Sequence record: SRR31156797_602
Strand: one strand, 5' to 3'
Length of the DNA stretch: 44,779 bases
Part shown: positions 2,997-44,154 of the stretch, piece by piece
How the letters are laid out: each line of letters starts with the position of its first letter
Numbering within the stretch: position 1 is the first letter of the stretch
Program-made: the position numbers and the translations under genes
Notes under the pieces: model-generated
What the model saw: the letters and a program-made list of their open reading frames with translations, nothing else
Database searches by the model: none
What the model was told of the DNA's origin: nothing

Positions 2997-3009
2997 GACG
3001 TCTCCTTGG

Positions 3010-3510: not shown

Positions 3511-3513
3511 GAT

Positions 3514-15768: not shown

Positions 15769-15809
15769 GATCGAATCCCTTTCCCATCGTTCAGGCGATT
15801 CTATCGATA

Positions 15810-16310
15810 TCAGCCGGCCGGCTTCTCTCGGGGGACCCGGAAAACCCGCATGATTTTCACGGCCCAGTAGACCACGTAAGCCATGTACATTCCCAATGGC
15901 CACCAGAAAATATCCTCCCGGAGCCGAACCGGATCCGACAGGTTCGCTTGCAGGGAAAGCAAACCCACTACGAACATGAAGGCGAAGGTGACGGAGCCGA
16001 ACCGGAATAACATTCCGGAGAGCAACATTACCATTCGGTTCCGGTTTTCTTCTTTCAACCAATAGGCCTTGTTCGGGAGGTTGATCCAGCGGGCCGGCGT
16101 CTTGCGGAGAAGATGGGGGATAAAATAGAGCGACAGGAACAAAAGCCCATTGGCCCCGGCCATGATCAGGGCACTGACATAGGCCGGCGCCCAGCCGTCG
16201 GGTTCGCCCCCAAAGCCGAAATGGATCGCAACGGTCGAGGGGGATACGGCCAGGGAGACAAGGGCCAGAACCAGGTTCGCCGCAAAGGCTAGGATGAAGA
16301 CGGTACGCAT
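15810..16310 (-). CDS. DUF1648-type membrane protein
   Basis: VAIHFGFGGEPDGW and INLPNKAYW motifs, four TM segments; ATG 16310 after GAAGAGG. Confidence 0.8.
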   Translation of the reverse strand: MRTVFILAFAANLVLALVSLAVSPSTVAIHFGFGGEPDGWAPAYVSALIMAGANGLLFLSLYFIPHLLRKTPARWINLPNKAYWLKEENRNRMVMLLSGMLFRFGSVTFAFMFVVGLLSLQANLSDPVRLREDIFWWPLGMYMAYVVYWAVKIMRVFRVPREKPAG

Positions 16311-16526
16311 GTAAACCTCTTCCGTGAACCCGAATGGCCGGCCGGGGGGCGGACCAGGAGCGGGCCATATGCTGAATCTTCCGATTCTCAATAAATAATA
16401 GACCCATCAATAGGAGTCAAGAACAGATCCGGCCCCTTTAAAGTCCGTCAAATCCTTGACTCCCAATGTCATCATGAAGCGGGACGGCAGAGGCAGGCGG
16501 TGAAGTGATTGCCGCAGCGGGCGCCG

Positions 16527-17600
16527 CTAGTTCTGTTTGCGCTCGCTGGAACAATTGATATCGCCGATCAGTTTGACGGCTGCCACGTCTGCCAGAAGGG
16601 ATCCGATGGTCTCGATGGTTTTCCGAAACGGCGTGTTCCGTACGCGACTCCATCTTGCGTCGCCTTCAAAACGCTCGGGCATTTGAATATTGTATAAAAC
16701 GGGGATTTTCGGATCTTGGAGATCGTCCAGATTGAGGGCGTGGACCCTCAGCCACGCCTCGCCCGCGGGGATGACGTCCGTCAAGTAGTCGATGACCACC
16801 TGTCCGTTGTCAAAGACCGTTGTGGTCAGTTTTCTCCCCTCTTCCCAGTTGCCCAAGGTGGCGTCGGGCACCACCTCCACAAGATTCCAACCGGCAAGGA
16901 TGATGTTTTCTCCGGCGCGAATGGCGCTTCCCGTCGCCCCTTGAACAAGATCGCCGAAAAAGGCCTCTTTCATCTTGGAAAGGAAGAAGCCGGCTCGTCC
17001 CACAAACCCTTCAGGTTCTTTTTCCCCGTCCGGGCGCCAGAGACCGAAACTGAAGCCGCTGCCCAAATCTTCGAAAAAGTCCACAATGGAACCGAGCACC
17101 CCTTTCCCCTTTCCCACCTGAATCCGGTTGTTTTCATCCCGATAATGGGTGTCGGCGCCGAAAAAAATATTTCCGAAGAAATTTTTAATGTTGCCCAGAG
17201 CATCGGAAAGATCCTTTCCGATCCGATCCCAAAAGGACTCGTGGGCCTTGGGATTGGCATCAAACCTTCTTTTTTCCAGGTCATAATGGTCTCCCCCGGG
17301 ATTGCTCAAGAGCTGATCGTCTTTATACTTCTCCCAATCGCTCTGCCGTTCAAGGGGCGCCGCCTGATTTTCATAGGCAGCCGCGGCGTCGGCCTTGGAG
17401 GGTATATTGGATGCCGCGTCAAATGGATAGGGGGAGGGGAACATGGCATGATCCGAAGCATTGGAGGGACCGTGATCGGAAGGATGGACCGTCTCTCCCC
17501 TTAAAATACATTCAAATTCTTCCCATGTCGGTATGGATGGGCGCGTCCTCGGCGAATGAAGGCCTTCGGTGCGGGGCTTGTCAATAGGTTTGATTTCCAT
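16527..17600 (-). CDS. Hypothetical protein
   Basis: 357-aa ORF with a low-complexity N-terminus and an amphipathic Gly/Phe/Asp-rich C-terminal region; sigma54-like promoter upstream. Confidence 0.7.
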   Translation of the reverse strand: MEIKPIDKPRTEGLHSPRTRPSIPTWEEFECILRGETVHPSDHGPSNASDHAMFPSPYPFDAASNIPSKADAAAAYENQAAPLERQSDWEKYKDDQLLSNPGGDHYDLEKRRFDANPKAHESFWDRIGKDLSDALGNIKNFFGNIFFGADTHYRDENNRIQVGKGKGVLGSIVDFFEDLGSGFSFGLWRPDGEKEPEGFVGRAGFFLSKMKEAFFGDLVQGATGSAIRAGENIILAGWNLVEVVPDATLGNWEEGRKLTTTVFDNGQVVIDYLTDVIPAGEAWLRVHALNLDDLQDPKIPVLYNIQMPERFEGDARWSRVRNTPFRKTIETIGSLLADVAAVKLIGDINCSSERKQN

Positions 17601-17727
17601 CAAAATACGTGAATCCCTGGCCTTTTAGCGGCGTAATCCCCCATTGGGCAAAATCATTTGCTTCCGGGGCGACGATCCTGTTCAGGCCATTGGACCGCCC
17701 TGCCGATACTTGCTTCCTCTAGATGCA

Positions 17728-19428: not shown

Positions 19429-20124
19429 TTATTGGACGGGCACAAACATTGTCTTCTCGATTGAAGTATCGAACACATCAATGTATTCAAGTGCTTTTGA
19501 CCATATATCGGCAATGTGATCAAGCAGTGAAGGGCTGCATGTATAGACAAAATCATAAACACTTTCGGCCACGGACGGCGCTGACCATCGCATCACTTCA
19601 AAAAAATGATCAGCACCTCCGGATTCTGTATCCAGGTCCTCAATGAGCAATGTTTGCCTTTTTTTTAATTCCCAACTAATAAACGGAAGGAATAGGTAAT
19701 GTAGGCTTAATTCATCAGAGGCGATGTTTTCAAGAATCTCTTTTTGCTCGATCCGATTTTTATCAATTAATATTAATGAAGCCATCAGGTTAAGGGCATC
19801 CTCCTGAATTTGCAAGAAATTCTCAACTTTTCCCCGGTTCAAAACACTTTCCCAAAAGAGCGGATCGACCTTTAAGACATTGGCAACAACTTCCGGCGTC
19901 AATTGCCAGCTAATCATGGATGGGCAAGAATAATCATTTTCCCTTAATATTGCGGCAATTTTAACGGGAGAAAGATGTGTCAGAATCTTTTTTACAAATT
20001 CATCTCCTTTTTCATCAGCTAGTGTTTCAAGTGCTTTTTCGGCCTTTTGTTCCGATATATCAGTGAGTTTATCGATTGATGCAACATGTTTATCGACGGT
20101 TGAGACATCGAATTCTTCACTCAT
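19429..20124 (-). CDS. AtcB-like acidic protein
   Basis: 231 aa from MSEEFD after RBS AAGGAGG; AEKALETLADEKGD...LSPVKIAAILRENDYSCPSMISWQLTPE resembles the AtcB family as I recall it. Confidence 0.5.
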   Translation of the reverse strand: MSEEFDVSTVDKHVASIDKLTDISEQKAEKALETLADEKGDEFVKKILTHLSPVKIAAILRENDYSCPSMISWQLTPEVVANVLKVDPLFWESVLNRGKVENFLQIQEDALNLMASLILIDKNRIEQKEILENIASDELSLHYLFLPFISWELKKRQTLLIEDLDTESGGADHFFEVMRWSAPSVAESVYDFVYTCSPSLLDHIADIWSKALEYIDVFDTSIEKTMFVPVQ

Positions 20125-20168
20125 ATTCTCCTCCTTATTGAGGGTTGTTTTGTCCCCGCCTACCTGAT

Positions 20169-21548
20169 TTACAACGTCCCGCGCAAAGGTAAAGGGGCCG
20201 GTACGGTTTTCGGCATCCTCTTTAATTCCGCCAAAACAAAAGCCATGGTGATAATAAACGTAACAAGATCGGCAACAGGAAATGAAAGCCAGACCCCGTT
20301 CAACCCGTAGAACCGCGGCAGGAAAACAATCAGGGGCACCAGGACCAACACCTGACGCGAAAGAGAAAGGAGCAGCGCCGGAACCGCTTTTCCAAGGGCC
20401 TGGAAAAATGCGGCGCCCACTATCTGGCATCCCGCAAGGGGCAGGAAAAAAACACACAAGCGAAGGGCATTGCTGCCGGATACCGCCAATTCCGGATCCT
20501 TCGTAAACATCCTCATGATGGCTTCGGGAAACAAAAGAACCACCAGAAAACCCGTGGTGGCCACAATTGTTGCGGCGATGAAGGTCAATTTGATGCTTTG
20601 GCGGACGCGTGGAAACCGGCGGGACCCATAGTTGAATCCGACAACCGGCTGCAACCCCAGGGTTATCCCCATGATCGGCATGAATATGAAGGAGAGCAGG
20701 CGGAAGATCACGCCAAAGGTCGCAATACCGATGGCGCCGCCATAATGGCTGAGGGTGTGGTTCAAAAGCGCTATCATAAAACTCATGGCGCCCATACGTA
20801 CGAAGGCGGAAGACCCCACCGCCAGCATTTCCTTTATAATCTCCATTTTAAGCCGCATATGGCGTAAGCCGAAGGGAATTTCACTGCGCCCGGACACAAA
20901 ATAGACCAACAGCAAAGTACTGGAAAGCGCCATGGAAATCACGGTGGCAACCGCGGCCCCGCGGATTCCCATCTTCAGAACATAAATGAAAATCGGATCC
21001 AGAATCATATTCAAAACAGCACCGGCCGTCATGGTCAGCATGGCCATTTTGGCATTGCCTTCGGCCCGGACCGCATCGTTGGCCACCATGGAAAAAGTCA
21101 TTAAGGGGCCTGAAAGGAAAATGATTTGAGCATACTGCCGGGCCGGCGGCAGCAAGGCTTCGGTTGTCCCGAAGATCCGCAGAAGGGGCGTCAGCGCAAA
21201 ACCACCGATTAGCTGGACGGCAAACCCTATTAGAACCGTCAGCAGCACCATATTTCCCAAGGTCCGCCCCATCTCCTCCTTGTTCTTTGCGCCCATACGT
21301 CGTGAAATAATGGAGGCGCCGCCGATGCCGATGGTTTGCACGACAGCCATTATCAGCATGACAATGGGCAAAACCACCGATATGGCGCCGATGCCCAGAG
21401 GGCCCACCCATTGACCGACAAAAATGGTATCCACCGTATTGTACACCGCATGGACCAACATGCCGACGATGGCGGGAAGGGACAACTTCATGAGCAATGG
21501 TCCGATTTTTTCGTCGGCCAGCATATCGCTTCTTGTTTTTGTTTTCAT
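20169..21548 (-). CDS. MATE family efflux transporter (MepA-like)
   Basis: 459 aa, about 12 TM; YNTVDTIFVG, RAEGN, NMILDPIFI, GAAVATVIS, QPVVGFNYG. Confidence 0.93.
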   Translation of the reverse strand: MKTKTRSDMLADEKIGPLLMKLSLPAIVGMLVHAVYNTVDTIFVGQWVGPLGIGAISVVLPIVMLIMAVVQTIGIGGASIISRRMGAKNKEEMGRTLGNMVLLTVLIGFAVQLIGGFALTPLLRIFGTTEALLPPARQYAQIIFLSGPLMTFSMVANDAVRAEGNAKMAMLTMTAGAVLNMILDPIFIYVLKMGIRGAAVATVISMALSSTLLLVYFVSGRSEIPFGLRHMRLKMEIIKEMLAVGSSAFVRMGAMSFMIALLNHTLSHYGGAIGIATFGVIFRLLSFIFMPIMGITLGLQPVVGFNYGSRRFPRVRQSIKLTFIAATIVATTGFLVVLLFPEAIMRMFTKDPELAVSGSNALRLCVFFLPLAGCQIVGAAFFQALGKAVPALLLSLSRQVLVLVPLIVFLPRFYGLNGVWLSFPVADLVTFIITMAFVLAELKRMPKTVPAPLPLRGTL

Positions 21549-25713: not shown

Positions 25714-26709
25714 TCAATTCCGACCACTGGCCCGAGACGAGGCTTCATAAGTCCCAGAAGAAAACCCGTAGGCGCGAACGATTTCAATCAAAACGCCCAT
25801 CTTTCTCCCATAGGCCTCCCCTGACGGTTTTTTCAGCGTTTCCAGGGGATATGTCATCCCCAATGAGCCGTATTTCATTTTGCCCAATTCATGAAACGGC
25901 AGCAACTCCAGTCGTATAACTGTGTTTCGGCATTCCTGACGCAGGAATGCGGCCGTCTCTCTTATGTTATCTTCAGAATCGTTATGGCCGGGGACCACGG
26001 GGACCCTTACCACCATGGGAATTCCGGTCCCTGAAAGCTTTCTGATATTTTCAAGGATGAGTTCGTTTGAAAAACCTGTGTATTCCAGATGCTTTTTTGT
26101 ATCCATCTGTTTGATATCGGTAATAAAATAATCGATGTAGGGAAGGGTTTCTTCAATGATTTTCCACGATACCGGCATGGCGGACTCAACACAGGTATGC
26201 AGGTTCTCCCTTTTTGCTTCTTTCAGAAGCGCTTTTGTAAAATCCCATTGAAAAAATGGTTCACCGCCGGAAACGGTCACGCCGCCGCCGGTTTCTTCAA
26301 AGAATGCCCGATCCCGACAAACCTCTTTTATCTGATCCGCTGCGGTTACCCGTTTGCCCCAGACGGTCAAGGCGTTTGCCGGGCATGCCTCGGCGCATTT
26401 CAAACAGGCAGTGCAAAGACTGCGATCGATGGCGATCACGCGATGGTCTTTCACACAAAAAACATTCTCTACTGGACAAACCGCCATACAGTAGCCGCAT
26501 TTTTCGATATCAATACAGCGCTTGGGAAAAACGCCGATTTCAGGATTCAAGCCCCAACTTTCAGGATTGTCACACCATCTACAGCGCAATGGGCATCCTT
26601 TCAGGAAAACCTGGGTCCGAGTGCCAGGTCCATCATGAATCGTATACCGCTGGACATTGAAAACCGTCCCCTTTAGGACGTTGTCCGTTTCAGGCGCATC
26701 ATCAGGCAT
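25714..26709 (-). CDS. Glycyl-radical enzyme activating enzyme (radical SAM with ferredoxin insert)
   Basis: HDGPGTRT, GCPLRCRWC, two CxxCxxxCP-type clusters, GGVTVSGGEP. Likely start MPDDAPE at 26709. Confidence 0.93.
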   Translation of the reverse strand: MPDDAPETDNVLKGTVFNVQRYTIHDGPGTRTQVFLKGCPLRCRWCDNPESWGLNPEIGVFPKRCIDIEKCGYCMAVCPVENVFCVKDHRVIAIDRSLCTACLKCAEACPANALTVWGKRVTAADQIKEVCRDRAFFEETGGGVTVSGGEPFFQWDFTKALLKEAKRENLHTCVESAMPVSWKIIEETLPYIDYFITDIKQMDTKKHLEYTGFSNELILENIRKLSGTGIPMVVRVPVVPGHNDSEDNIRETAAFLRQECRNTVIRLELLPFHELGKMKYGSLGMTYPLETLKKPSGEAYGRKMGVLIEIVRAYGFSSGTYEASSRASGRN

Positions 26710-26791: not shown

Positions 26792-29314
26792 CTAAAAAAC
26801 CAGTTCGGTCCTTTCCAAAATATCCTTCTGCACGCCGGGGTCGAGTTCCGTAAAAAAAGCGCTGTAACCCGCCACCCGAACAATGAGACCCCTGTACTTG
26901 GAAGGGTTTTCCATGGCATCTTCAAGGGTTTTTCGACTCACCACATTGATCTGGTTGTGCATGCCCTTTCGCTGGAAAAATACTTTCATCATGCCGATGA
27001 AGCTCTCGTCTCCCACCGTCCCTTCAAGGGTGGAGGGGCTGAATCGCATGTTTAGGAGCGTGCCGTTTGAGGCGATCCCGTGGTCCAGTCTGGATACGGA
27101 TTTGACCACGGCGGTGGGTCCGTTCACATCATGGGACCCCCGTTCATTATGTACCGGGGACACACCGTCAGCCACCGGTTCACCGGCCTTTCTACCGTCC
27201 GGCGTGGCACCCTGCAGGGCGCCTAAGGGCACATTGGCGGAAACCGGGTAAAGACCGGCCTGAAATTCCCCGCCGTGGGCCGTGGGGCGACCTTCCAGAA
27301 GTCGACAATAGGTTTTCGCCCCGAACCAGCCCATCTCGTCGGCTGTTTTGTCGTCGTTTCCGTAATGGGAAACTTTGGCGCTGTTGACCAGGGCGTGCAA
27401 GGCCTCATATCCTTCCCAATTTTTTTTCAATGCCTCCAGGAACGCCTTCCCGCTGATCTTTTTCTCATCGAATACCAACTGTTTAATGGCGGAAAGTCCA
27501 TCGGCCACATTGCTGACCCCCACCCCCTGGGGTCCCACGTAGTTGTACCTCGCCCCCCCGGCCGTTACATCCACCCCCTTTTCGGTACAATCCTCCACCA
27601 GCAAAGAAAGGTACGGCAACATTTTCAGGGTCTGGTGGGCCAAATCCATACAGAGTTCCGATTTCACCAGGCGATCCACCCAGTAGGCCATCTGCTTCAC
27701 ATAGGCGTCCTTTACTTCCTCAAAGGTCTGAAAGGCATCCAGGCTGCCGCTCCGGACGCCCAATTGGGAACCGGCGCCGGCACAGACACGGTATCTTGGA
27801 CAATGGTCGCTGCAATCGATACATTGTCCGTTATTCAAGGCCAATTCGAGAACCTTGTTCATGTTGAAAAAGGCCGCGTCGTGCCAACCGTACTCACGTC
27901 CCCCGGCATCCGGCTCCACACACCCCAATGCGCCATAATCCCTGGCATCTTCAATGGACCGACCCCGGTTGACCATGGAGGGAATGATCACCTCGTCATT
28001 GAAAAAAGAAGGCATCCCCAACCCCACCTTCGCGGCCTTTGTAACCTTCACCCACCACTCGTGGGGTGAATTGGCATGCCAGCGGCTGGTCATCCAGGGG
28101 GCATTCAACTGAACATGCATGAGGGCGTCAACGGCCATAAAGGAGAGCTCGTTGGTGGCGTCTTTTCCATCCGGCGTCTGCCCGCCGACCGTCAAAGACG
28201 GTCCGCCCAATTCCACGCCCCCAAAGGCCTTGGTGGATCCGGCATCCCTTATTTTTGTGAGTTCGCTGATCTTGATCCAGGCACCTTCGATGAGCTCCTG
28301 CACGAACTCCGAGGTCACCCGATCCTTCTTAATATCGTTTTTAAAAAAAGGATACATCACCTGGTCGAATCTGCCCCAGTGGACGGAATGACCGTTACCT
28401 TCGATGGTGATCACAATGGTAAGCAACCACCACAACTGAAGTGCTTCCCAAAAAGTCCGGGGCGGATTTTCTGAAACCCATCGGCAGTTCTCCGCCATTT
28501 GGAGGAGTTCCTTCCTGCGCACGCCCTTCTTTTTCTCAGCCATTTCCCGGGCCAAACCGGCATACCGGCGCGTATAAACGACCATCCCTTCCAAGGCGAT
28601 GAGTTGGGCCTTATAGAACTGCTTTTTCCAGACATTTTCCGGGACAAACGGATCGAGTCCGACCATTTTGCCTTCAACTTGCTCCCGTATGCCTTTCCAC
28701 CCATTTTCGAAAATCATCTCATATCGGGGCGACACGTGACCCACGCCCCCGAAAAAGTAATTCCCAAGGAGATAGACCCCCTTGCCGTAGGCGCCGGTGC
28801 CTTTCAATTCTTCTTCGGTCATCAAGCTCTTGGCATAATCGTGTACGGTCTCGTTCTTCCAAAAGTTTCGAATGCGCTTCAGACTCTTTTTGGCCTCTTC
28901 GTCGATGAGGAATCGATCCCCGTCCCGTTTCTCAAAAGGCTCGTTTTCCATCTCATGGATCAGCCACTCATAGGAAAACTCCGGAAAAACAGGCGCCGTC
29001 CTAGGCGGAGCCGCCATGTTTCCGAGAATCAATTCAAATTTTCCGATCTCTATGGGAACATTTTCAAGGACATGGGCCAAAGCCTCGGCATTCCGCACGA
29101 TGCGGGGCTTGCCTTTGTTTTTCTGAAGCTTCCGGGTCCACAATACGGCCCGATCAGGGGAAATTCTGAGAGGCGTATCAAGAAACTGTTTTCGCCAAGC
29201 GTTGATCCTGGGAAACGGGGAAGGATTTTCCGCCTGACCTGAAGTGCCGGTCCCCCAGTCTTTGTCATAGTCTTCACAGCCTTGAATCACTATTTTTTTT
29301 GCGGTTTTTTGCAT
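26792..29314 (-). CDS. Glycyl radical enzyme, diol/polyol dehydratase-like clade, substrate unknown
   Basis: 840 aa from MQKTAKK after RBS GGAGGAGG; Gly loop RVAGYS, Cys loop GCVEP, GVGH, NGHS, WHDAAFFN, GLYPVSAN. Confidence 0.92.
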   Translation of the reverse strand: MQKTAKKIVIQGCEDYDKDWGTGTSGQAENPSPFPRINAWRKQFLDTPLRISPDRAVLWTRKLQKNKGKPRIVRNAEALAHVLENVPIEIGKFELILGNMAAPPRTAPVFPEFSYEWLIHEMENEPFEKRDGDRFLIDEEAKKSLKRIRNFWKNETVHDYAKSLMTEEELKGTGAYGKGVYLLGNYFFGGVGHVSPRYEMIFENGWKGIREQVEGKMVGLDPFVPENVWKKQFYKAQLIALEGMVVYTRRYAGLAREMAEKKKGVRRKELLQMAENCRWVSENPPRTFWEALQLWWLLTIVITIEGNGHSVHWGRFDQVMYPFFKNDIKKDRVTSEFVQELIEGAWIKISELTKIRDAGSTKAFGGVELGGPSLTVGGQTPDGKDATNELSFMAVDALMHVQLNAPWMTSRWHANSPHEWWVKVTKAAKVGLGMPSFFNDEVIIPSMVNRGRSIEDARDYGALGCVEPDAGGREYGWHDAAFFNMNKVLELALNNGQCIDCSDHCPRYRVCAGAGSQLGVRSGSLDAFQTFEEVKDAYVKQMAYWVDRLVKSELCMDLAHQTLKMLPYLSLLVEDCTEKGVDVTAGGARYNYVGPQGVGVSNVADGLSAIKQLVFDEKKISGKAFLEALKKNWEGYEALHALVNSAKVSHYGNDDKTADEMGWFGAKTYCRLLEGRPTAHGGEFQAGLYPVSANVPLGALQGATPDGRKAGEPVADGVSPVHNERGSHDVNGPTAVVKSVSRLDHGIASNGTLLNMRFSPSTLEGTVGDESFIGMMKVFFQRKGMHNQINVVSRKTLEDAMENPSKYRGLIVRVAGYSAFFTELDPGVQKDILERTELVF

Positions 29315-29346
29315 GGCCTCCTCCGAATTCCGAGTTGAAAAGTCCA

Positions 29347-30159
29347 CTACCCCTTCACAGCGCCGAAAGTAAGCCCCCGGATGATATATCGCTGCATAAA
29401 CCAGGCTGCGGCCAATGTGGGCAAAATGGCCACACAGATACAGGCCGCCATGGTCCCCCAATCCACCTGGCCCGAGGCCCAGAAAGAAGCCAGCCCGATG
29501 GTCAGGGTCCTGGCGATGTTCCGTGTGAAAAGAAACGCGTAAAGAAATTCGTTCCAGGAGAAAATAAAGCAGAACATGGCCGTAATGGCGGCGCCGGGCA
29601 TAATCATGGGAAAAATGATTTTCCGGAAGATGTCGATCCGCCCGTACCCGTCGATGGTGGCCGCCTGCTCCAGTTCCACGGGAATTTCCCTGAAAAACCC
29701 GTAGAGTAGGAATACGGCGAATGAAACATTGAAATAGAGATAGAGAACAATGAGGCCGAAGCGGGTATCCAGAAGCCCCATCCCTTTAAACGCCATGAAA
29801 AAAGGGATGGCCGCCACGGCCGCGGGGAACATGCGGGTGGAGATGGTGACGAAGAGCAGATGACCGTATCCGGTTTCGTATCGGGCAAAGCTGTAGGCCG
29901 CGGGCAGCGCCACCAGCATGACCAGAATGGTGCTGCTGATGGATATGACCAGCGTATTGAGGAGCTCCCGCACAAAAACCGTCTTCGTGAAAAGATTGAC
30001 GTAATTGTCAAGGATGGGTGAAAAAAAGAACATCCTCACCAGATCCTGGGTATAGATATCCGCATTGGTCTTAAAGGAGGTGAGATATATCCACACCAGG
30101 GGCGATACAAAGGTAAATACCACAAGCAGCGTCGCTGCCCAGAAAAGGGTTCGTTTCAT
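29347..30159 (-). CDS. Carbohydrate (CUT1) ABC transporter permease 2
   Basis: EAA loop ELEQAATIDG, FSWNEFLYA, six TM. Confidence 0.92.
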   Translation of the reverse strand: MKRTLFWAATLLVVFTFVSPLVWIYLTSFKTNADIYTQDLVRMFFFSPILDNYVNLFTKTVFVRELLNTLVISISSTILVMLVALPAAYSFARYETGYGHLLFVTISTRMFPAAVAAIPFFMAFKGMGLLDTRFGLIVLYLYFNVSFAVFLLYGFFREIPVELEQAATIDGYGRIDIFRKIIFPMIMPGAAITAMFCFIFSWNEFLYAFLFTRNIARTLTIGLASFWASGQVDWGTMAACICVAILPTLAAAWFMQRYIIRGLTFGAVKG

Positions 30160-30171
30160 TTTTTTCCTCCG

Positions 30172-31137
30172 CTATTCGCTTGTGGCCGCCAGGGCCTTCA
30201 TCAACTGGTTAAAAAGGATACCGCACACGATCATGGTCAGGAACAAAGAGATAATGGCCAGGGTGGATCCCCGGCCGATGTCAAAATAGACAAAGGTATT
30301 CCTGTAAATCTGCCAATCCAAAAGCTCCGTATCGGCGCCGCCACGGGTGGTTCCATAGAGGGGGTCAAAGAGCCGAACCAGCCACATGGTCCTCAAAAGC
30401 ACAATGATCATGATCAGGGGCGCCAGGTTTGGCAGGGTGAGCCGCCTGAAGGTGTACCAGGGGCCGGCGCCGTCCACCCTGGCGGCTTCGAAAGAATCCC
30501 TGGGAAGGCTCTTGAGCCCCGCCAGAAGGACAAATATGGAGAAAGGGACCCACTGCCACACGGAGATTGCCGCAATGGTGTAGAGCCCCACCCCCGGCGC
30601 GAACCAGCTGACCTTTGAAATTCCCACCAACCCAAAGACCATATTGACGATTCCGAAATCGTATTGCAGAAAGAAATTCCACATCATGGAGACGGCCAGC
30701 GGCGCGATGAGCAGGGGCAAAAGGATAAAGCCCCGAATGGGGTTCTGACCCTTGAATTCACGATTGAATAAAACCGCAACGCCCATGCCGATCGTCAACT
30801 CGGCCCCGATGCTGATCACCAGTACGATCCCCGTACGGCCCAGGGCCAGCCAGAACTCCCCGTCCCGCAACACGTCCCGGTAGTTCTCAAAGCCGATAAA
30901 GGTCGCCGCCTTGACCATGCCGAATTCGTGGAAAGAATACCACAGGCAATAAAGAAGAGGATACAGCATGAAAATGATAAGGACCAAAAGGAGCGGAACC
31001 AAAAGAAGCCATTTATAATATCTGTCGTCACTGAGGACGCTCCAAAAGGTCCGTTCCCGAACTTTGGGATAATCCCCCGATGTCTCCCGGGTTAACGGCC
31101 CCGCCTGCAACGTCGCCTCACTTACATTGTTAGCCAT
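30172..31137 (-). CDS. Carbohydrate (CUT1) ABC transporter permease 1
   Basis: FIGFENY, WQWVPF, EAARVDGAG, TLP. Confidence 0.92.
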   Translation of the reverse strand: MANNVSEATLQAGPLTRETSGDYPKVRERTFWSVLSDDRYYKWLLLVPLLLVLIIFMLYPLLYCLWYSFHEFGMVKAATFIGFENYRDVLRDGEFWLALGRTGIVLVISIGAELTIGMGVAVLFNREFKGQNPIRGFILLPLLIAPLAVSMMWNFFLQYDFGIVNMVFGLVGISKVSWFAPGVGLYTIAAISVWQWVPFSIFVLLAGLKSLPRDSFEAARVDGAGPWYTFRRLTLPNLAPLIMIIVLLRTMWLVRLFDPLYGTTRGGADTELLDWQIYRNTFVYFDIGRGSTLAIISLFLTMIVCGILFNQLMKALAATSE

Positions 31138-31402
31138 TCAAACACCTCTCTGTTTCACGATTTCCCGTTCATGTCCTTCGAAGGACGTCCTTTATGGAAC
31201 AAACCGATGGCATACGCCGGGTAATGTCCTGTCCAAAACGGATGGGCCTGAATTCTCGACACTGAGTACAATAGGAAGGTAACCCCCATTGTTTTGTCTC
31301 CTCCTCAGAGGCGAACACACAGAATCCGTTTTTCATACCGTTAGCGCTCTTGTTTACGCTTACACCAGTGCACACAAATGGATCTTTCGAAAATTGAGGC
31401 AC

Positions 31403-31422
31403 CCCGCGAACCATGCCGCGGG
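31403..31422 (-). other. GC-rich hairpin just downstream of the binding-protein gene (possible mRNA-stabilising element)
   Basis: CCCGCG-N8-CGCGGG. Confidence 0.35.
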
Positions 31423-31441
31423 AATACCCCGTTTCCTTCAC

Positions 31442-32932
31442 CTACTTTTCTTCCCGAATGGGGAGCTGTCCGAATTTTTTCTGCAACTGCATGGTTTTCT
31501 TGGTGATTACCTTGACGCACTCTTCCGGGGTGTACTTTTTGATGGCAGCATTATGCAGCTCAATGATCTGCATTTCATAGATCTTGCCCATGGCTGCGCT
31601 GTTGAAGTGAATGTAGTTATTTACGTAGTTGTTCTGAACCTGAAGGGCCAGGGAGTTGATGTATGCCCGGTCGCCGATGGATTTTTTCCATTTCGGATCG
31701 TTCTGATAAATGGGATCGCCCATGATATCGATCCGCACCCCGGGAAATCCGCCTTCCATGAGCTCTTTCTGACATTCATACCCGCCCAGATACTTGATAA
31801 ACCAGTAGGCTGCCTCGGGGTTCTTGCTGGCTTTGGCCACGCATTCGGCGAAATCGCCGATATACCCCTGCCTGCCCACACATAGGGCCATCCCCTTTCT
31901 AGCGCCCGGCACCTTCTTCTCCACCTGCCATGTCCAGTCTTCAACCACCAGATAGAGATACGGCAACATGATGGCCTGGCCCTCCACGAACTGGGCGCAA
32001 CAGAAATCCCAGAAACCGGTCAAGCAGCCCGGGGAGGCGAACTTGAGCAGGCTGACGTAAAATTCGATGGCTTCCTTCTGTTTTTGCTTGTCCTTCTTGG
32101 TGATGACGAATTCCTTGGCCTTGCCGTTTTCATCGCGAACGATGGTGGCCCAATGGCCTCCGTTGCCCCAGAGAATGGCGCTGATCTCGTCATTGATCTC
32201 AAACCGTCCCGCCATCAAAGCGACACCGTAGACATCCTTCTTGAGGACTTCGCCTTTCAGCTTTTCCCCGGCTTTTCTCGTGAAGAATTCTGCCGTATCA
32301 TAAAGCTGTTGTCGGGTAACGGGCACTTTGAGCTCGTAGCCGTATTTTTTCTTGAAATTGGCCTTTTCCGTTGGGTCTTCAAAGCAGTCAATGCGATGAT
32401 ACAAAACCTGCTCGTAGTTCCAGTAGGGGATTCCCCGAAGCTTCCCTTCCCGGTCGCAGGTGGTCCGAATCAAAGCCGGATCATGACCCGCCAGATCGCT
32501 CTCAAATCCGGCCAGCCCGGTGGGCTCATACTTTTTGGCCAACTCTCTCACGTCCCAAAGATAGGGGGCCCATTCACAGGTGGTGGAGGTCTCCATGACG
32601 ATACAGTCGTATGCGCCGGATCCCGACATCAACTCCACATTAATTTTAGGGTAAATGCTGGTCATGATCATCTTTTCAAAGGTAACCTTCACCCCGGTCT
32701 TCTCTTCGAATTTCTTGATCATCTTGGGCACTGCGATATCAAACTGCTTGGTGCCCCCGAATAATGCGATATGAATCTGCCTTTTGTTTTTAATGTCCGG
32801 AATATCCGCCAGTTTGAACTTGGGTGTGGGCGTCTCAAGCCAATCCGCCAAAGCGCCCGGCGCCACGGTGAAAACCAAAATGCCCATGAGAAAAAAACCG
32901 ATTAACGATTGAACCAAACTCTTTTTTCGCAT
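31442..32932 (-). CDS. ABC transporter extracellular solute-binding protein (family 1)
   Basis: Signal peptide ending ALA-D; FEEKTGVKV, GIPYW, FKKKYGYELKVP, SKNPEAAYWFI; RBS GGGAGG. Confidence 0.9.
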   Translation of the reverse strand: MRKKSLVQSLIGFFLMGILVFTVAPGALADWLETPTPKFKLADIPDIKNKRQIHIALFGGTKQFDIAVPKMIKKFEEKTGVKVTFEKMIMTSIYPKINVELMSGSGAYDCIVMETSTTCEWAPYLWDVRELAKKYEPTGLAGFESDLAGHDPALIRTTCDREGKLRGIPYWNYEQVLYHRIDCFEDPTEKANFKKKYGYELKVPVTRQQLYDTAEFFTRKAGEKLKGEVLKKDVYGVALMAGRFEINDEISAILWGNGGHWATIVRDENGKAKEFVITKKDKQKQKEAIEFYVSLLKFASPGCLTGFWDFCCAQFVEGQAIMLPYLYLVVEDWTWQVEKKVPGARKGMALCVGRQGYIGDFAECVAKASKNPEAAYWFIKYLGGYECQKELMEGGFPGVRIDIMGDPIYQNDPKWKKSIGDRAYINSLALQVQNNYVNNYIHFNSAAMGKIYEMQIIELHNAAIKKYTPEECVKVITKKTMQLQKKFGQLPIREEK

Positions 32933-33120
32933 AATGACCTCCCTAAGAAAATTTTTGAAGTTTGTTTTCGAGTGTTAAGGCTCCCTTTTTTTGATTATCA
33001 CCTCCCAAACGATTAAAAGTTTTAAACCCGGATGTTGCTTTGACAATCATGAACTTACAAACCGCAATGTTTTCTTTAAAAAAATAGAATCTCCACCTGA
33101 AAAACAGCTTATGGTGACGC

Positions 33121-34215
33121 CTATTGAAGGATGGGCATGTCCCCGTCAAATAGGTGAATGGTATCAGGCGCCATTTCAAGCCGGACCTTCTCTCCCGGCT
33201 CGGGCAACCATTCCGTTTCGATGACCGCTTTCACCTCATTTTTTTCCAAATCATCCAGAATCACCGTCACAATCACCGATTCCCCTTGAAACTGGGTCAG
33301 GTCAACCACGCCCGGGATCCCATCTTTGCCATTGCCGGCCATGGAAAGTCGAACCTGCTGGGGTCTGACGCCCACCGTTATTTCGGATCCCACGGATTTC
33401 TCTCCCACCGCGCCATCAAAGGGAAGAATCGATTTTCCATTCTTCGTGCTGATGGAAACCTGACTTCTGTTTTCGATCCGCCCCTTTATGAAATTCATCT
33501 CGGGTTCCCCCACGAAAGTGGCCACGAATTTGTTGGCCGGATGGTTCCAGATCTCATCCACGGTTCCGATCTGCTGAAGCTTTGCGTGATTCATGACCGC
33601 AACCCGATCCGCAAGGGAAACCGCCTCTTCCTGATCGTGGGTCACATAAATGGTGGTAAGCTTCAACTCATCGTGGAGCCTTCGAATACGCGCCCGCATA
33701 TTGGCCCGGACCCGCACGTCCATATGGCTGATGGGTTCATCCAGGAGGGTGATGTTGGGCTGCCGAACCAGGGCCCTGCACAAATTGACCCGCTGCTTGT
33801 GCCCGCCGCTCAAGCTCCCCGGCTTCTTCTTCAGGATGTCGGTCACGTTCAATATGTCGGCAATCCACATGACCTTTTTATCGGCCTCGGCCCTGCTCAT
33901 ACCCTTGGCGCGCATGGGAAAAGCGATATTTTCGTGGACGTTCAGGCGGGCATAGAGGGCATAGGACTCGAAGGCAAGCGCCAGGTTTCGTTCACTGGGG
34001 CTGAGGTCGTTCACCACCTTGCCGTCGAACCGAATCTCCCCCCTGGTGATATCCTCAAGCCCGGCAATCATCCGCAAGGTGGTACTCTTGCCGCATCCGG
34101 AAGGCCCCAGGACGGCCAGAAACTCCCCGTCTTCGATAAAAAAGTTCAGATCCTGGACCGCCTCAACATCCCCATCATAAATTTTCCATACATTGCTGAT
34201 ATCGACTCTACTCAC
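33121..34215 (-). CDS. ABC transporter ATP-binding protein (MalK-like) 2
   Basis: GPSGCGKST, LSGGHKQR, LLDEP, YVTHDQ; C-terminal TOBE-like region; GTG start. Confidence 0.93.
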   Translation of the reverse strand: MSRVDISNVWKIYDGDVEAVQDLNFFIEDGEFLAVLGPSGCGKSTTLRMIAGLEDITRGEIRFDGKVVNDLSPSERNLALAFESYALYARLNVHENIAFPMRAKGMSRAEADKKVMWIADILNVTDILKKKPGSLSGGHKQRVNLCRALVRQPNITLLDEPISHMDVRVRANMRARIRRLHDELKLTTIYVTHDQEEAVSLADRVAVMNHAKLQQIGTVDEIWNHPANKFVATFVGEPEMNFIKGRIENRSQVSISTKNGKSILPFDGAVGEKSVGSEITVGVRPQQVRLSMAGNGKDGIPGVVDLTQFQGESVIVTVILDDLEKNEVKAVIETEWLPEPGEKVRLEMAPDTIHLFDGDMPILQ

Positions 34216-34230
34216 CTTCCACCCCTCCCC

Positions 34231-35346
34231 TTATTTGGATATCTTCACGGTCTTTTTAAAGAAAAAGCTGTGTTCCTGGTCAAAATCCAGCCAAACCTTC
34301 TCGCTCATGCCGTACTGTTCCGGACCCTTCACACTTGCCCTGAAAAAGCACTTGTCTAACTCAAAGGTGATGACCGCGCCTTCGGGCCGGCGTACGATGG
34401 CATAGATGGGCAGTTTAAATGAATGTTCCGTGGTCCTTTCTTTGCTCACTTTGATGCGAGAGGGCCGAATGCCGAGACGAATTTCTCCGTCTTGGTCCTC
34501 GGCTGCAATTTTTTGGGCGGCCGCGATGGATTTGTTTTGCAAAGGGATGGAAAACTCTTTTCCGGATTGAAACAGGGTTTTTCCGTTACCACTGACAAGG
34601 CTTCCGTCAATGAGGTTGCAGGGGGGGTCTCCGATAAAATTGGCGACGAAATCGGTTTCCGGCCGGTTATAAATCTCCCTGGGCGTTCCGATCTGCTCAA
34701 ATTTTCCCTTTCGGAGCACCGCGATTCGATCGGACAAACCCAACGCCTCCCGATAATCATGGGTCACATAGATAATGGCGGTGCCCAATTTGACGGAAAG
34801 CCGTTTTAAGGCCGTCTGGGTGGAAAACTTCAGTCTCGCGTCCAGATGGGCAATGGGTTCGTCCAGCAAAAAGCATTCACATCGTCTCACCATGGCCCTG
34901 GCCAGGGATACCCGTTGTTTCTCGCCTCCGCTCAATTGGACGGGTTTCCTACCCAACAGTCTTTTGATCCCCAGAAAGTCGGCCACCTCTTCGACCCGCC
35001 GTTTTTCCTCGTCCTTGGACAATTTTTCATGCCTTTCGGGAGCTCTCAAGGGAAAGGCGATGTTTTCATAAACCGAGAGATGGGAATAGAGATTATAGGT
35101 CTCAAAGGCCATGGCCACATTCCTTTCCCTAGCGGAAAGGGCGTTGACTTCATAGTCGTCAAAGAAAATCTTGCCGGACGTCACCGGTTCAATGCCGGCG
35201 ATCATCTTTAGTATGGTTGATTTCCCCGCTCCGGCCGGTCCGATGATGGAGAAGAACTCTCCCTCCCTGTACTCAAAACTCAGGTTGTCCACGGCCAGTT
35301 TGTTTCCATATTTTTTTGTTACGTTTAGAAGTTTTACACCCGCCAT
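34231..35346 (-). CDS. ABC transporter ATP-binding protein (MalK-like) 1
   Basis: GPAGAGKST, LSGGEKQR, LLDEP, YVTHD; start MAGVKLL. Confidence 0.93.
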   Translation of the reverse strand: MAGVKLLNVTKKYGNKLAVDNLSFEYREGEFFSIIGPAGAGKSTILKMIAGIEPVTSGKIFFDDYEVNALSARERNVAMAFETYNLYSHLSVYENIAFPLRAPERHEKLSKDEEKRRVEEVADFLGIKRLLGRKPVQLSGGEKQRVSLARAMVRRCECFLLDEPIAHLDARLKFSTQTALKRLSVKLGTAIIYVTHDYREALGLSDRIAVLRKGKFEQIGTPREIYNRPETDFVANFIGDPPCNLIDGSLVSGNGKTLFQSGKEFSIPLQNKSIAAAQKIAAEDQDGEIRLGIRPSRIKVSKERTTEHSFKLPIYAIVRRPEGAVITFELDKCFFRASVKGPEQYGMSEKVWLDFDQEHSFFFKKTVKISK

Positions 35347-35347
35347 G

Positions 35348-35548
35348 TTATTCCTCTCCCTCCTCCACCTCTTCACTCTCCCGCGGGCCGTAGATGAGCA
35401 AAGCCAGGAAGACCATGAGCCCGATTAACGCGCCGATCCATTGGGGAATGTATAATTCCAGCCAGCCCAACCACAAAAAATTAACGCCCACAAAGGCCAG
35501 AATCCCCCAAAAAAGCCAGTTTCCCCATGTCATTCGTGGTAAAAACAT
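35348..35548 (-). CDS. Small integral membrane protein, DUF2160 (GlpU)-like
   Basis: FLPRMTWGNWLFWGIL...FLWLGW, two TM helices; RBS CAGGAGG; located in the ABC cluster. Confidence 0.65.
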   Translation of the reverse strand: MFLPRMTWGNWLFWGILAFVGVNFLWLGWLELYIPQWIGALIGLMVFLALLIYGPRESEEVEEGEE

Positions 35549-38992: not shown

Positions 38993-40078
38993 TTATTTCG
39001 ACATTAAATCCAGCAGAATTTCCCACTTGAGGTTATTGAATCCAAAGTGAATCACATGGATTTTCGAATCCAAACCCTTCTCCAGACTCTCCGGGAGATG
39101 ATTCTTCGCAATAATGCAGGTCCCTTTGGTCGGTTTCAGGATTTTGTGGGCCAACCGAATGTCTTCAATTTTTCTTTTATGGCGTTCTTCCTCCTCCTCC
39201 AACTGATCCAGGAAATAAACCATCAAGTCAGGTCTGCAGAATTTTTCACAATCAGATACAAGGGATATATCCTCAAGATTTTCATCCATATAAAGCAGTA
39301 AATCCGGCTTCAATTCGGTGGTTTCGTACTCCTCCACAAATGAGTCAATAAGAAGCCATTCCCTCTCTTCACTGTAAAAGGAGGCATGCCAGAGGGCCTT
39401 TCCAATCTCAGTCCGAAAAGCCACATATTTCTCCAATTTTGCGCTACGGATAATAAAATCGGGAATCAGCAAAACATCCCTTCGCCCCACCTCAAAACCC
39501 AGGGCTTTGGTTTCTTCCGGAAAGGGGATATTCTGTTTCATTCGATCACGGTGAAAAATCATCTGTTTTGAAGAAGGTTGGGGAAGAGGAACTTCGTACA
39601 CTTTTTCGGGGCTTAGGTTCTTAATCCAGGAAAGAACAAACCACTTGATATAGCCCATCTGATAGAGGTTACGAAAAGAATCATGGACACTTTTTTCGGC
39701 CCTTTCTTCAAACTCCTCCGGTTCTATCTTTTCTTGAAGCAATTCAAACAAAGGGTCAAACAGATCTCTTACGACCTGTTTCATGGGATCGGACAAAAAC
39801 CGTTCCAGCTCTAAGGGCATCAAGACATCTTCCAGACGAAGACGCTCTGACAAATAATCTTCCACTTTCATATATTTACGACTTAAAAACAGCGCCTCAT
39901 CCAACCACTCGGAGTAATTCTGGGCAAGAAATGAAGCCCTCACTGCGTTGAATTTCTTATAGAAGGCCGGCCGAACTTTATTGTCGATACTAACCAAGTC
40001 TTCCCTGATCACCACTCCGGGCTGATCTTCCATGAAATCGATCAACTCCCCATATCGTTTGGACCATAATTGTGACAA
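38993..40078 (-). CDS. Hypothetical protein within the catabolic cluster
   Basis: 361-aa ORF, TTG start after RBS GAGGAG; acidic and soluble; no recognised family. Confidence 0.75.
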   Translation of the reverse strand: MSQLWSKRYGELIDFMEDQPGVVIREDLVSIDNKVRPAFYKKFNAVRASFLAQNYSEWLDEALFLSRKYMKVEDYLSERLRLEDVLMPLELERFLSDPMKQVVRDLFDPLFELLQEKIEPEEFEERAEKSVHDSFRNLYQMGYIKWFVLSWIKNLSPEKVYEVPLPQPSSKQMIFHRDRMKQNIPFPEETKALGFEVGRRDVLLIPDFIIRSAKLEKYVAFRTEIGKALWHASFYSEEREWLLIDSFVEEYETTELKPDLLLYMDENLEDISLVSDCEKFCRPDLMVYFLDQLEEEEERHKRKIEDIRLAHKILKPTKGTCIIAKNHLPESLEKGLDSKIHVIHFGFNNLKWEILLDLMSK

Positions 40079-40195: not shown

Positions 40196-41167
40196 TTACC
40201 TGCAATCCAACAGGGTTTGTTTGACCAACCCCTTTGCAATGTGGATCTTGTATTCATTCATGGATAACGGTTTGGCACCCCATACCGCGGCTTCACCGGT
40301 GGTTTCGGCGGCCTCTTCATCCAGGGCCTTGCCCTTGAGGTAATCCGCCGCCCTTGTGGGCACATACGGTTTGTAATGGACGGCGTTCAGGCAGATCCTC
40401 GCGTCCTCTACCGTATCCCCGCTGCTCACCACCATGGACGCACAGTTGACAATGGGAAAATCAATGGACTTGCGGATGGCGAATTTTTTCCACGAACTCT
40501 TCGCGCCCGCCACCGGTTCGGGGATCTGAAACTCCATAAGGATTTCGTCCTCGTCAAGGGTCGTCATTCTTGTGGCATCTTTTTCAGGAAACATATCCTC
40601 CACGTCCAAGGTCCGCTTGGAGGTGACCGCCTTGGCTCCCAAAACAATCAGCGCCGGCAGGGTATCGCTGGGATTGACGGCGAGGCAATCTTTCACATCA
40701 CCGAAAATTGAGTGATAACGGTTGTCCCCATCGTCCGCGTAGCATTCATCCCCACCCTTTCTGGCACAGGGGAATCGGTTGTTGGGACACCGGTAATACC
40801 AGCAACGTGAATTCTGGCACACGTTCCCGCCGATGGTTCCCATTTCTCGAATATGGGGGGATGCGGTGTAGCGCGCCGCCAACGCCAGAGCGGTATATTT
40901 TTCCCTGATCATGGCGTTGTGACCGATGTCCTCCAGCCTGACCAGGGCGCCCAGTTTTAAGACGCCGTCTTCTTCCTTCATCTCTTCAAGACCCGGAATA
41001 TTCTTGATATTGATCAAGGCCTCATAAGGTTTATCGAGTACATTGTCCTTATAGAGCCCGATGACATCCGTTCCTCCGGCGATCACCTTTGCTCTGCCCT
41101 CAAACTTCGATAGGAGGGCTACAGCCTCTTCTATCGTTGAAGCGTCAAAATGCTTGAACCTTACCAT
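40196..41167 (-). CDS. Xanthine dehydrogenase-family FAD subunit with [4Fe-4S] insert (PaoB/HcrB type)
   Basis: IAGGTD, GTIGGN, RCWYYR...CARKGGDEC...C insert, RKSIDF; start MVRFKH 1 nt after the large-subunit stop. Confidence 0.9.
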   Translation of the reverse strand: MVRFKHFDASTIEEAVALLSKFEGRAKVIAGGTDVIGLYKDNVLDKPYEALINIKNIPGLEEMKEEDGVLKLGALVRLEDIGHNAMIREKYTALALAARYTASPHIREMGTIGGNVCQNSRCWYYRCPNNRFPCARKGGDECYADDGDNRYHSIFGDVKDCLAVNPSDTLPALIVLGAKAVTSKRTLDVEDMFPEKDATRMTTLDEDEILMEFQIPEPVAGAKSSWKKFAIRKSIDFPIVNCASMVVSSGDTVEDARICLNAVHYKPYVPTRAADYLKGKALDEEAAETTGEAAVWGAKPLSMNEYKIHIAKGLVKQTLLDCR

Positions 41168-41168
41168 T

Positions 41169-43652: not shown

Positions 43653-43665
43653 GTAGATCGCCTCC

Positions 43666-44154
43666 TTATCCTTTAAGCTTTTTGGCTGCATCCTGCACAG
43701 CCCAAATGTGTGCCGGGTATGTCCCGCATCGGCAGATGTTGCCTTCCAGGGCAGTCTTGATGTCTTCTTCCGATGGGTCCGGATTTCTGTCCAGCAAAGC
43801 CTTTGCCGTTACCACGAATCCCGGCGTACAATATCCACATTGCATGGCATGATTGTCAGCATAAGCCTGGATTAACGGATGTCCCTTCGCGTTGATCTGT
43901 TCAATGGTTTCGATCGGATGACCATCACATTCGATGGCCAGTATCATGCATGACAGAACCGGCCTGTCATCCATGATCACTGTACAGGAACCGCAGGCAC
44001 CGCGGTCACACATCTCCTTGGTCCCTGTCAACCCGATCCTGTCCTGCAGGATTTCCCTTAGGGTTTCCTGAGGCTCAACCACGAGGTGGTGCTCATCACC
44101 GTTTATCTGCAAGGTAACCAGCCTGGCGCCACCTTGTTCCTCTACGTTCGCCAT
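43666..44154 (-). CDS. Xanthine dehydrogenase-family [2Fe-2S] small subunit (CoxS-like)
   Basis: CDRGACGSC, QCGYCTPG, GNICRC; RBS AAGGAGG. Confidence 0.93.
   Translation of the reverse strand: MANVEEQGGARLVTLQINGDEHHLVVEPQETLREILQDRIGLTGTKEMCDRGACGSCTVIMDDRPVLSCMILAIECDGHPIETIEQINAKGHPLIQAYADNHAMQCGYCTPGFVVTAKALLDRNPDPSEEDIKTALEGNICRCGTYPAHIWAVQDAAKKLKG

Follow-up and report, generated by a model that had tools for sequence, protein, structure and literature searches.

A four-cysteine insert in a glycyl radical enzyme

The 44,779-nucleotide stretch of DNA from sequence record SRR31156797_602, referred to here as the window, carries a gene for a glycyl radical enzyme (GRE), in whose catalytic chain four closely spaced cysteines form a short additional segment, the Cys4 insert. 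The gene and the features within it are the following; A1 denotes an alignment of 66 sequences and GD glycerol dehydratase.

26792..29314, minus strand: GRE gene, 840 amino acids, ATG start; identified by Pfam, HMMER and NCBIfam matches
29213..29314, minus strand: N-terminal extension, residues 1-34, with a conserved D-K-x-W-G-x-G-x-S-G; alignments to GD and TIGR01774 begin only at residues 35-36
27911..27925, minus strand: Cys loop GCVEP (G464-P468) with the catalytic Cys465 and Glu467; G464, C465, V466 and E467 are invariant in A1, and the loop aligns with GCVEP of 1r8w
27782..27823, minus strand: Cys4 insert, C498-x2-C501-x3-C505-x5-C511; delimited by its codons, a gap in alignments and conservation
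26861..26878, minus strand: glycyl radical motif RVAGYS (R813-S818) with the radical site Gly816; R813, V814, G816 and S818 are invariant in A1

The mechanically derived open reading frame (ORF) of the GRE is longer, spanning 26792-29461 from a TTG start. The true start is likely the ATG at 29314; the Shine-Dalgarno sequence GGAGGAGG stands before it, and the resulting 840 residues match the length of relatives. Pfam assigns the protein to PF02901 PFL-like (664.3 bits; cut-off 24.3) and, over residues 715-822, to PF01228 Gly_radical (101.2 bits; cut-off 22.2), while a score of 753.9 bits on TIGR01774, the PFL2/glycerol dehydratase subfamily (cut-off 678.2), places it among the GREs. An Rfam scan of the window gave no match.

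On the minus strand, positions 27722-27883 of the window translate to ...ALNNGQCIDCSDHCPRYRVCAGAGSQLG..., in which 27782-27823 encode C-I-D-C-S-D-H-C-P-R-Y-R-V-C between ALNNGQ and AGAGSQLG, with C498 at 27821-27823 and C511 at 27782-27784. The plus-strand translation of the same stretch contains no comparable four-cysteine pattern. An earlier, first-pass annotation of this DNA had given exactly these coordinates for a four-cysteine motif, without noting the minus-strand orientation of the gene, and had placed the motif about 25 residues after GCVEP; this distance needs correction, as 29 residues lie between P468 and C498, which itself follows the catalytic Cys465 by 33 residues. The insert is located about 300 residues before Gly816 and outside the C-terminal glycyl radical domain. 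By its place in the sequence, it would come after the Cys loop and the next helix, where the second half-barrel begins. The conserved dimer interface of GREs consists of N-terminal helices, and their glycyl radical domain lies at the C-terminus, on the periphery (PMC13450708, available text). The window GRE has 10 cysteines in total, and when its sequence was shuffled 20,000 times, four of them fell within 14 residues in 48 cases; given also its conservation, the four-cysteine pattern is, by these statistics, far beyond chance.

Conservation of the four cysteines

The first-pass annotation had proposed conservation of the cysteines among close homologues as the check on the motif, and this check turned out in its favor. 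In a word-indexed search of 5.8 billion proteins, the top 120 homologues, whose identity over residues 380-640 ranges from 53 to 92%, all had the insert, and 119 of them carried all four cysteines. The spacing was canonical in 113, while six had a 7-residue middle spacer and one, P0031, retained three cysteines, with Gly replacing the first. P0031 is the sole partly decayed form seen; the insert-less lineages have the whole segment deleted, so that the insert follows an all-or-none pattern. In A1, three of the cysteines (C501, C505 and C511) do not vary at all, and conservation of C498 is at least 90%.

The consensus of 140 unique canonical segments reads A-[IL]-N-[ND]-G-[RQK]-C-[ILV]-x-C-[GS]-x-x-C-P-R-[WY]-x-x-C-[GAV]-G-x-G. 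These segments were picked by their cysteine pattern, hence only the non-cysteine columns are informative. Among these columns, Arg occupies the R507 position in 120 segments, an aromatic residue is found at position 508 in 130, and Pro follows C505 in 87. In relatives 64-90% identical to the window GRE, the cysteine codons swap synonymously between TGT and TGC and the intervening residues vary. One of these residues, His504, was considered as a metal ligand and rejected, since close relatives have D, E or Q at this position. The spacings between the first and second cysteine (2 residues) and between the third and fourth (5 residues) are fixed, whereas the linker between the two pairs comprises 3, 4 or 7 residues, an arrangement that fits two ligand pairs on a free linker. 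The synonymous changes of the cysteine codons point to strong purifying selection on the Cys4 insert wherever it is present.

The insert in comparison with other GREs and solved structures

HMMER alignments to 1r8w, 5i2a and 9rco place the 26 residues N494-G519 of the window GRE opposite 11 residues, leaving a gap of 15. The gap is 13 residues in the alignment to Citrobacter HpfG, a GRE that, according to the available text of PMC13450708, dehydrates (2S)-2,3-dihydroxypropanesulfonate (DHPS) and has no experimental structure. For a broader comparison, we used the best 150 representatives of 50%-identity clusters drawn from 8,741 hits at E<=0.001, of which 149 cover the loop; 76 of these rows were aligned with a fixed-length option that can drop novel insertions. 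A 13-residue span replaces the 26 residues of the window in 125 of them; the short loop that the first-pass annotation had described for GD and propanediol dehydratase (PD) is therefore confirmed and is also the usual form in representatives at large. Four-cysteine loops were found in P0023, P0126, P0129 and P0223 only. At the same site, P0154 has a distinct three-cysteine loop, P0144 an unrelated insertion of about 60 residues, and P0172 and P0198 unrelated insertions of 11-15 residues. These insertions indicate that the site is permissive and acts as an insertion hot spot.

Searches with the insert itself found no solved GRE structure that contains it. A 48-residue query spanning the insert matched no GRE in the PDB, and neither did a 30-column profile of the insert (A2), whose best match there had an E-value of 0.14. 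A 51-residue piece containing the insert gave no match to Fer4-type or other metal domains in Pfam, even at E up to 10. The spacing CxxCxxxCxxxxxC also sets the insert apart from the ferredoxin [4Fe-4S] motif CxxCxxCxxxCP, which leaves room for other modes of binding an iron-sulfur (Fe-S) cluster. A feature search of the ESM Atlas with residues 488-522 ranked short fragments of NrdD, the class III ribonucleotide reductase (RNR), at the top with 0.82-0.85, values below the reliability level that serve as a lead only.

Origin, losses and distribution of the insert

Trees were calculated from 171-172 GREs, comprising the window GRE, 30 near homologues, 76 of the representatives and 64 loci from named genomes; the 172nd sequence was HpfG of Enterococcus raffinosus. 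Rows with stop codons or fewer than 740 residues were left out, and FastTree was run with the insert columns both kept and removed. All three FastTree trees recovered one clade with a support of 100, containing 66 rows with the Cys4 insert and nine without it (ten when E. raffinosus HpfG was included). In the tree with the insert columns kept, the nearest insert-less group outside this clade consisted of GD/PD-like sequences. The basal branches within the clade (P0120, P0042/P0080, P0039, P0034 and the subclade of the window) are all insert-bearing, which indicates that presence of the insert is ancestral in the clade.

An IQ-TREE analysis (LG+G4) of 55 chosen rows gave the same picture, and its well-supported branches force nine state changes. 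A single clade of the ten insert-less rows, a group defined by the trait and not by a tree, was rejected by the approximately unbiased test (delta lnL 1141, p 0.0001). We read these sequence trees as indicating one gain of the insert, followed by at least seven losses within the clade, assigned to L055, L012, P0124, Enterococcus HpfG, the group of L045, L017, L013 and L071, L040, and L025. Part of the losses could be mimicked by recombination or transfer of loop-less alleles. P0126, which branches immediately outside the clade, has the same cysteine spacing, which would allow for a somewhat earlier gain.

The N-terminal extension is likewise specific to this clade, being absent in GD and PD and retained where the insert has been lost. 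Four of its residues (G23, S25, S32 and P33) are at least 90% conserved in A1, and the alignment of the window GRE to the HpfG model NF048009 begins at residue 11, within the extension. The proposal of the first-pass annotation that the insert may define a GRE subclass thus stands in part. Presence of the insert marks a well-supported clade; its absence is not a clean criterion, given at least seven losses that include HpfG of the Enterococcus and Citrobacter type. Together, the insert and the extension form a practical marker of a large clade in which HpfG is the sole characterised enzyme found.

The insert-bearing loci are distributed over Bacillota (19), Thermodesulfobacteriota (8), Spirochaetota (2), Elusimicrobiota, Pseudomonadota and Myxococcota (1 each), and two are unplaced. 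Profile A2 matched GRE-length frames in at least 10 of 401 sampled genomes from the phylum of Desulfoluna limicola, and in at least 3 of 399 scored genomes from the class of a Lachnospiraceae metagenome-assembled genome, with the genome at the center of the sample counted; up to 20 candidates per genome were scored in both samples. In some genomes the insert occurs in two or three GRE genes (G172:C178 25306-27979; G363:C7 24064-26832; G403, in three places), and in two genomes such genes stand in tandem, about 2.6 kb apart.

HpfG orthologues with and without the insert

The most direct comparison is offered by HpfG, whose orthologues occur in both forms. The GRE on the E. raffinosus megaplasmid scores 1696 bits on NF048009, and its loop, N-G-G-R-S-L-N-T-G-N-Q-L-G, has no insert. 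Next to its gene, an iron alcohol dehydrogenase, an anion transporter and an activase of the HpfH type are encoded, the last scoring 564 bits against a cut-off of 500. A copy on a Fusobacteria plasmid, 77% identical to it, also lacks the insert and adjoins an activase, a TauE-type exporter and an iron alcohol dehydrogenase. The same holds for the loop of a Citrobacter/Escherichia/Shigella cluster of 826 residues, named (2S)-3-sulfopropanediol dehydratase in NCBI and UniRef. Insert-less HpfG nests, with a support of 100, among Lachnospiraceae/Eubacterium proteins that score 1344-1521 bits on NF048009 and carry the same Cys4 insert as the window GRE.

Among the 120 best matches to Enterococcus HpfG (81-100% identical over residues 380-620), 97 are without the insert and 23 have it. 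A tree of the HpfG orthogroup places the Cys4 forms at the base and contains about six changes, located on very short branches. In the pair P0376 (839 residues, with the insert) and P0350 (826 residues, without it), the sequences are 79% identical over their full length and differ by a single 13-residue gap at the insert. The existence of such close orthologues with and without the insert suggests that the module is dispensable for catalysis, and we infer from these sequences that it would be needed neither for the radical chemistry nor for recognition by the activase. Since their substrate, DHPS, is known, the 79%-identical orthologues constitute a natural matched pair in which an effect of the module on stability, activation and radical lifetime is directly testable.

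HpfG of Klebsiella oxytoca was reportedly assayed by Liu and colleagues in 2020. This enzyme presumably lacks the insert, judging from the 824-position model that was built on it. An initial assignment, according to which characterised HpfG carries the insert, had been drawn from P0114, P0094, P0047 and P0048 (1037-1124 bits) and was dropped because the top-scoring HpfG proteins are insert-less. These four proteins, together with P0105 and the GRE of L012, score 1031-1124 bits and pass the NF048009 cut-off, yet lie far from core HpfG (1344-1696 bits). Some of them have a different gene neighborhood; only a TetR regulator and an activase, for instance, adjoin the D. limicola gene. Annotation pipelines may be giving the name HpfG to too wide a set of proteins.

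Nature of the Cys4 module

Our leading interpretation, in which our confidence is evenly balanced, is that the insert forms a compact Cys4 metal-binding module with a single Zn or Fe ion, acting as a structural accessory of a diol-dehydratase-type GRE. The four thiolates would hold one metal ion tetrahedrally, either Zn2+ or, as in rubredoxin-like sites, Fe2+/3+. The insert would enlarge the loop following the first helix after the Cys loop, and the metal site would clamp these 13-15 residues, which otherwise have little holding them in place. The module would have arisen once, near the base of the large HpfG-containing clade, and each loss would have taken out the entire cassette; it would lie outside the radical chemistry as an optional accessory. 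The intact-or-absent pattern and the two fixed pairs with a variable linker correspond to the behavior of a small cooperative metal site. Four conserved cysteines in two close pairs, as expected of a mononuclear Cys4 site, were found in 119 of the 120 best homologues, and the ligand positions of the insert (1, 4, 8 and 14) are close to those of the retroviral zinc knuckle (1, 4, 9 and 14). Within the superfamily, the zinc finger of class III RNR (PMC9669993) and the rubredoxin-like Fe(Cys)4 subunit MASS-delta (PMC13450708) set a precedent for Cys4 elements that hold a metal structurally.

Several observations weigh against this interpretation, some of which also speak for a cluster. Beyond the loop, the GRE alignment has no column that changes along with loss of the insert, so that no docking surface emerged; the best difference, 0.64, is found at residue 518, beside the insert, in a comparison with few independent contrasts. 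The cysteine spacing would also be compatible with an Fe-S cluster. A serious, though less probable, alternative is that the four cysteines ligate a [4Fe-4S] or [2Fe-2S] cluster, either structural as in MutY/EndoIII or redox-active; an intrinsic cluster would be a first for the catalytic subunit of a PFL-type GRE. In its favor, the insert-bearing GREs occur in strict anaerobes, which are rich in Fe-S proteins, and C505 is commonly followed by Pro, like the last cysteine of ferredoxin motifs. Furthermore, profile A2 weakly matched (21-24 bits) two Rrf2-family regulators with the same C-x2-C-x3-C-P-R-x3-C string, in a region that we take to hold the Fe-S ligands of that family. These matches are weak (E 1.5e-4 and 5.6e-4 per genome, in 401 genomes), however, and the two proteins are mutually orthologous. 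In the available text of bioRxiv 10.1101/2025.01.03.631205, MutY-type glycosylases bind a [4Fe-4S] cluster on a compact, contiguous Cys4 loop that is absent from some lineages through independent loss; repeated loss of the insert is therefore no argument for Zn. Every known GRE accessory subunit uses iron and not zinc (PMC13450708, in the part available).

On the other side, the spacing is not that of a ferredoxin and no Fer4-type domain was matched in the 51-residue piece. The dispensability of the module in orthologues speaks against essential electron transfer, but not against a structural cluster. On the sum of these sequence features, a mononuclear Zn or Fe site appears slightly favored over an Fe-S cluster.

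The module might instead act as a control element that contacts the glycyl radical domain or the activase and tunes the installation or lifetime of the radical, with either metal, as a cis counterpart of BSS-beta or MASS-delta. We consider this unlikely. The small Cys4 iron proteins of BSS and MASS make contact with the radical domain and affect how it moves, its activation and the formation of the thiyl, as far as the text of PMC13450708 is available. The conserved R507 and the aromatic residue 508 beside the ligands suggest a contact surface. In addition, a tblastn search of 19 window proteins against 75 genome loci identified the activase as the sole recurring neighbor, matched in most of these loci. 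In contrast, among 37 activases (30 encoded beside Cys4 GREs and seven beside insert-less ones), no column or indel tracks the loss, in a test that is weak since four of the seven insert-less cases belong to one lineage, and the 79%-identical HpfG orthologues occur with and without the module. The influence on activation suggested in the first-pass annotation thus found no support. Rather improbable, in our view, is an iron or Fe-S center fused into the GRE catalytic subunit with a redox or regulatory role. If this holds, a PFL-type GRE alpha subunit would for the first time be seen to possess its own redox or regulatory cofactor, and the repeated losses would mark lineages that gave up such control.

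A loop that binds no metal, being held by disulfides, serving as a thiol redox or oxygen sensor, or representing a neutral insertion, is very improbable: the site is an insertion hot spot (P0144, P0172, P0198, P0154) from which the insert was lost many times, but a neutral insertion is unlikely to keep four cysteines over six or more phyla with synonymous-only codon changes, the cytoplasm of strict anaerobes is reducing and makes structural disulfides unlikely, and the all-or-none pattern fits a cooperative metal site.

The two Rrf2-family regulators are themselves of note. Each has 154 residues and scores 95-98 bits on TIGR00738; they are encoded at L102:243-707 (plus strand) and L103:326-790 (minus strand) in genomes of the phylum Thermodesulfobacteriota. 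Their segment E-C-V-N-C-S-D-A-C-P-R-S-D-T-C may represent an unusual cluster-binding variant of the family.

Genomic context and probable substrate of the window GRE

The GRE gene is flanked by genes for its activase and for a transporter:

25714..26709, minus strand: radical-SAM activase, 331 amino acids counted from Met73 of a TTG frame; TIGR02494 332 bits (cut-off 174)
29347..35376, minus strand: ABC importer with two permeases, a binding protein (31442-32932) and two UgpC/MalK-like ATPases; upstream of the GRE gene and in the same direction, with its gene order retained in contigs L083 and L084

The activase gene begins 82 nucleotides downstream of the GRE stop codon, as expected of a cognate activase. 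The operon as a whole runs in the order electron transfer flavoprotein (ETF), UxaA-like dehydratase, two ATPases, binding protein, two permeases, GRE, activase, XdhC-type factor, FAH-type hydratase, cysteine desulfurase and NifU, and a molybdoenzyme of the xanthine dehydrogenase (XDH) family is encoded upstream of it. A metagenome contig that is 90% identical (L084, 2-17993) retains this order from ETF through NifU, and a second one (L083) does so in part; more distant relatives do not have it beside their GRE genes. A Desulfovibrionaceae copy of the GRE, 74% identical, adjoins a PocR-sensor kinase instead.

The pocket segment of the window GRE (residues 361-370, 28204-28233) provides a clue to its substrate. 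It reads G-V-E-L-G-G-P-S-L, with G-V-E-L shared by P0004, P0016, P0023 and P0034, whereas HpfG-type proteins have G-R-G-[FWM]-G-G-E-S-L, in which the Arg of G-R-G would be involved in sulfonate binding; the comparison included L082, L041, L047 and P0114. The Glu of G-V-E-L would instead suit a neutral or cationic partner. The window GRE scores 900.3 bits on NF048009, below the equivalog cut-off of 1000, and HpfG-type proteins score 1344-1696. The sub-cut-off score and the Glu in the place of the Arg together argue that the substrate is probably another diol. As the window subclade differs both in its pocket and in its operon, a new substrate is likely. Most likely, the enzyme is a dehydratase of an imported diol-type compound other than DHPS, as far as pocket and gene neighborhood allow us to predict. 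The aldehyde produced could be handled by neighboring molybdenum or tungsten oxidoreductases.

Further observations concern the surroundings of the operon. The genes from 21978 to 44154 form one co-directional string on the minus strand, which starts with the 2Fe-2S, Mo and FAD subunits of the XDH-family enzyme, followed by a 361-residue ORF without a family, ETF beta and alpha, and then the remainder of the operon. The ORF of the FAD subunit (40196-41359) overlaps that of the Mo subunit (41169-43691) by 191 nucleotides on the minus strand; its TTG start lies inside the end of the Mo-subunit gene, and the true start is probably further downstream. On the minus strand at 143-4488, a tungsten-type aldehyde:ferredoxin oxidoreductase and a poly-ferredoxin are encoded, further candidates for aldehyde oxidation. 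Four minus-strand ORFs of 342-600 residues (14608-16410, 16527-17603, 19429-20457 and 38993-40078) have no Pfam match even at E 0.1.

Comparison with known systems

HpfG resembles the window GRE in its clade, N-terminal extension, Cys loop, catalytic His/Ser/Asp/Tyr columns and adjacent activase. The window GRE is 41% identical to Citrobacter HpfG, and no neighbors resembling HpfD or HpfE (iron alcohol dehydrogenase, exporter) were found among the window genes beside it. The best relatives with solved structures are GD (1r8w/1r9d) and PD (5i2a), which align end to end with 701 and 678 bits. The motifs GCVEP, GWHD, NGHS, G-V-G-H and RVAGYS are shared with them, whereas GD and PD have neither the Cys4 insert nor the N-terminal extension. 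The columns of a diol dehydratase are in place: E467, two residues after Cys465, and H193, H309, S310, D479 and Y689 align with GD residues, among them His164, His281, Ser282, Asp447 and Tyr640, which we take to be active-site residues of GD. Tyr339 of GD (in F-G-G-Y-P-M-Y), with a presumed role in glycerol binding, corresponds to Gly in the window GRE.

Metal sites elsewhere in the superfamily differ in location and fold. The statement of the first-pass annotation that GRE large subunits carry no metal cluster was too sweeping, as the glycyl radical domain of NrdD, part of the catalytic chain, contains a zinc finger that is thought to be structural (PMC9669993, in the part available). That finger lies in the C-terminal radical domain by the radical Gly, while the window insert (498-511) is located in the barrel, ahead of the domain at 715-822, which separates it from the NrdD type. 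No sequence similarity between the two was detected by Pfam with the 51-residue piece or by profile A2 against the PDB. The Cys-X6-Cys-X2-Cys-X5-Cys loop of MutY/EndoIII is, like the insert, a short contiguous Cys4 segment, and it holds a cofactor; spacing and family differ, so this is an analogy only. Its [4Fe-4S] cluster was lost twice in MutY-type enzymes (bioRxiv 10.1101/2025.01.03.631205, available text).

Cysteine or metal sites in PFL-type GRE catalytic subunits are not mentioned in the searched literature, which included the available text of PMC13450708, PMC11489063 and PMC11528403, with most subscription papers and supplements outside the search. Within this text, the GRE review PMC13450708 does not use the word 'zinc' and uses 'four cysteine' for small subunits only, and the paper on E. 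gilvus HpfG (PMC11489063) contains neither 'zinc' nor 'cysteine'. The Cys4 insert is real, old and widespread, probably an accessory, and without an earlier description in the literature so covered.

A further parallel is provided by the small subunits of other GREs. According to the available text of PMC13450708, BSS-beta/gamma, HPAD-gamma and MASS-beta/gamma carry [4Fe-4S] clusters and MASS-delta a rubredoxin-like Fe(Cys)4 site, with structural or regulatory roles that are described as 'enigmatic'. No gene for such a subunit was found beside the window GRE by Pfam, or recurring at the 75 loci by tblastn of window proteins. Such attached metal cofactors have so far been described on separate chains with high-potential iron-sulfur protein (HiPIP) or rubredoxin folds in the X-succinate synthases and HPAD, which convert hydrocarbons and arylacetates. 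In the enzymes analyzed here, by contrast, a putative Cys4 module of only 14 residues is built in cis, as a loop, into the catalytic chain of eliminase-type GREs from at least six phyla.

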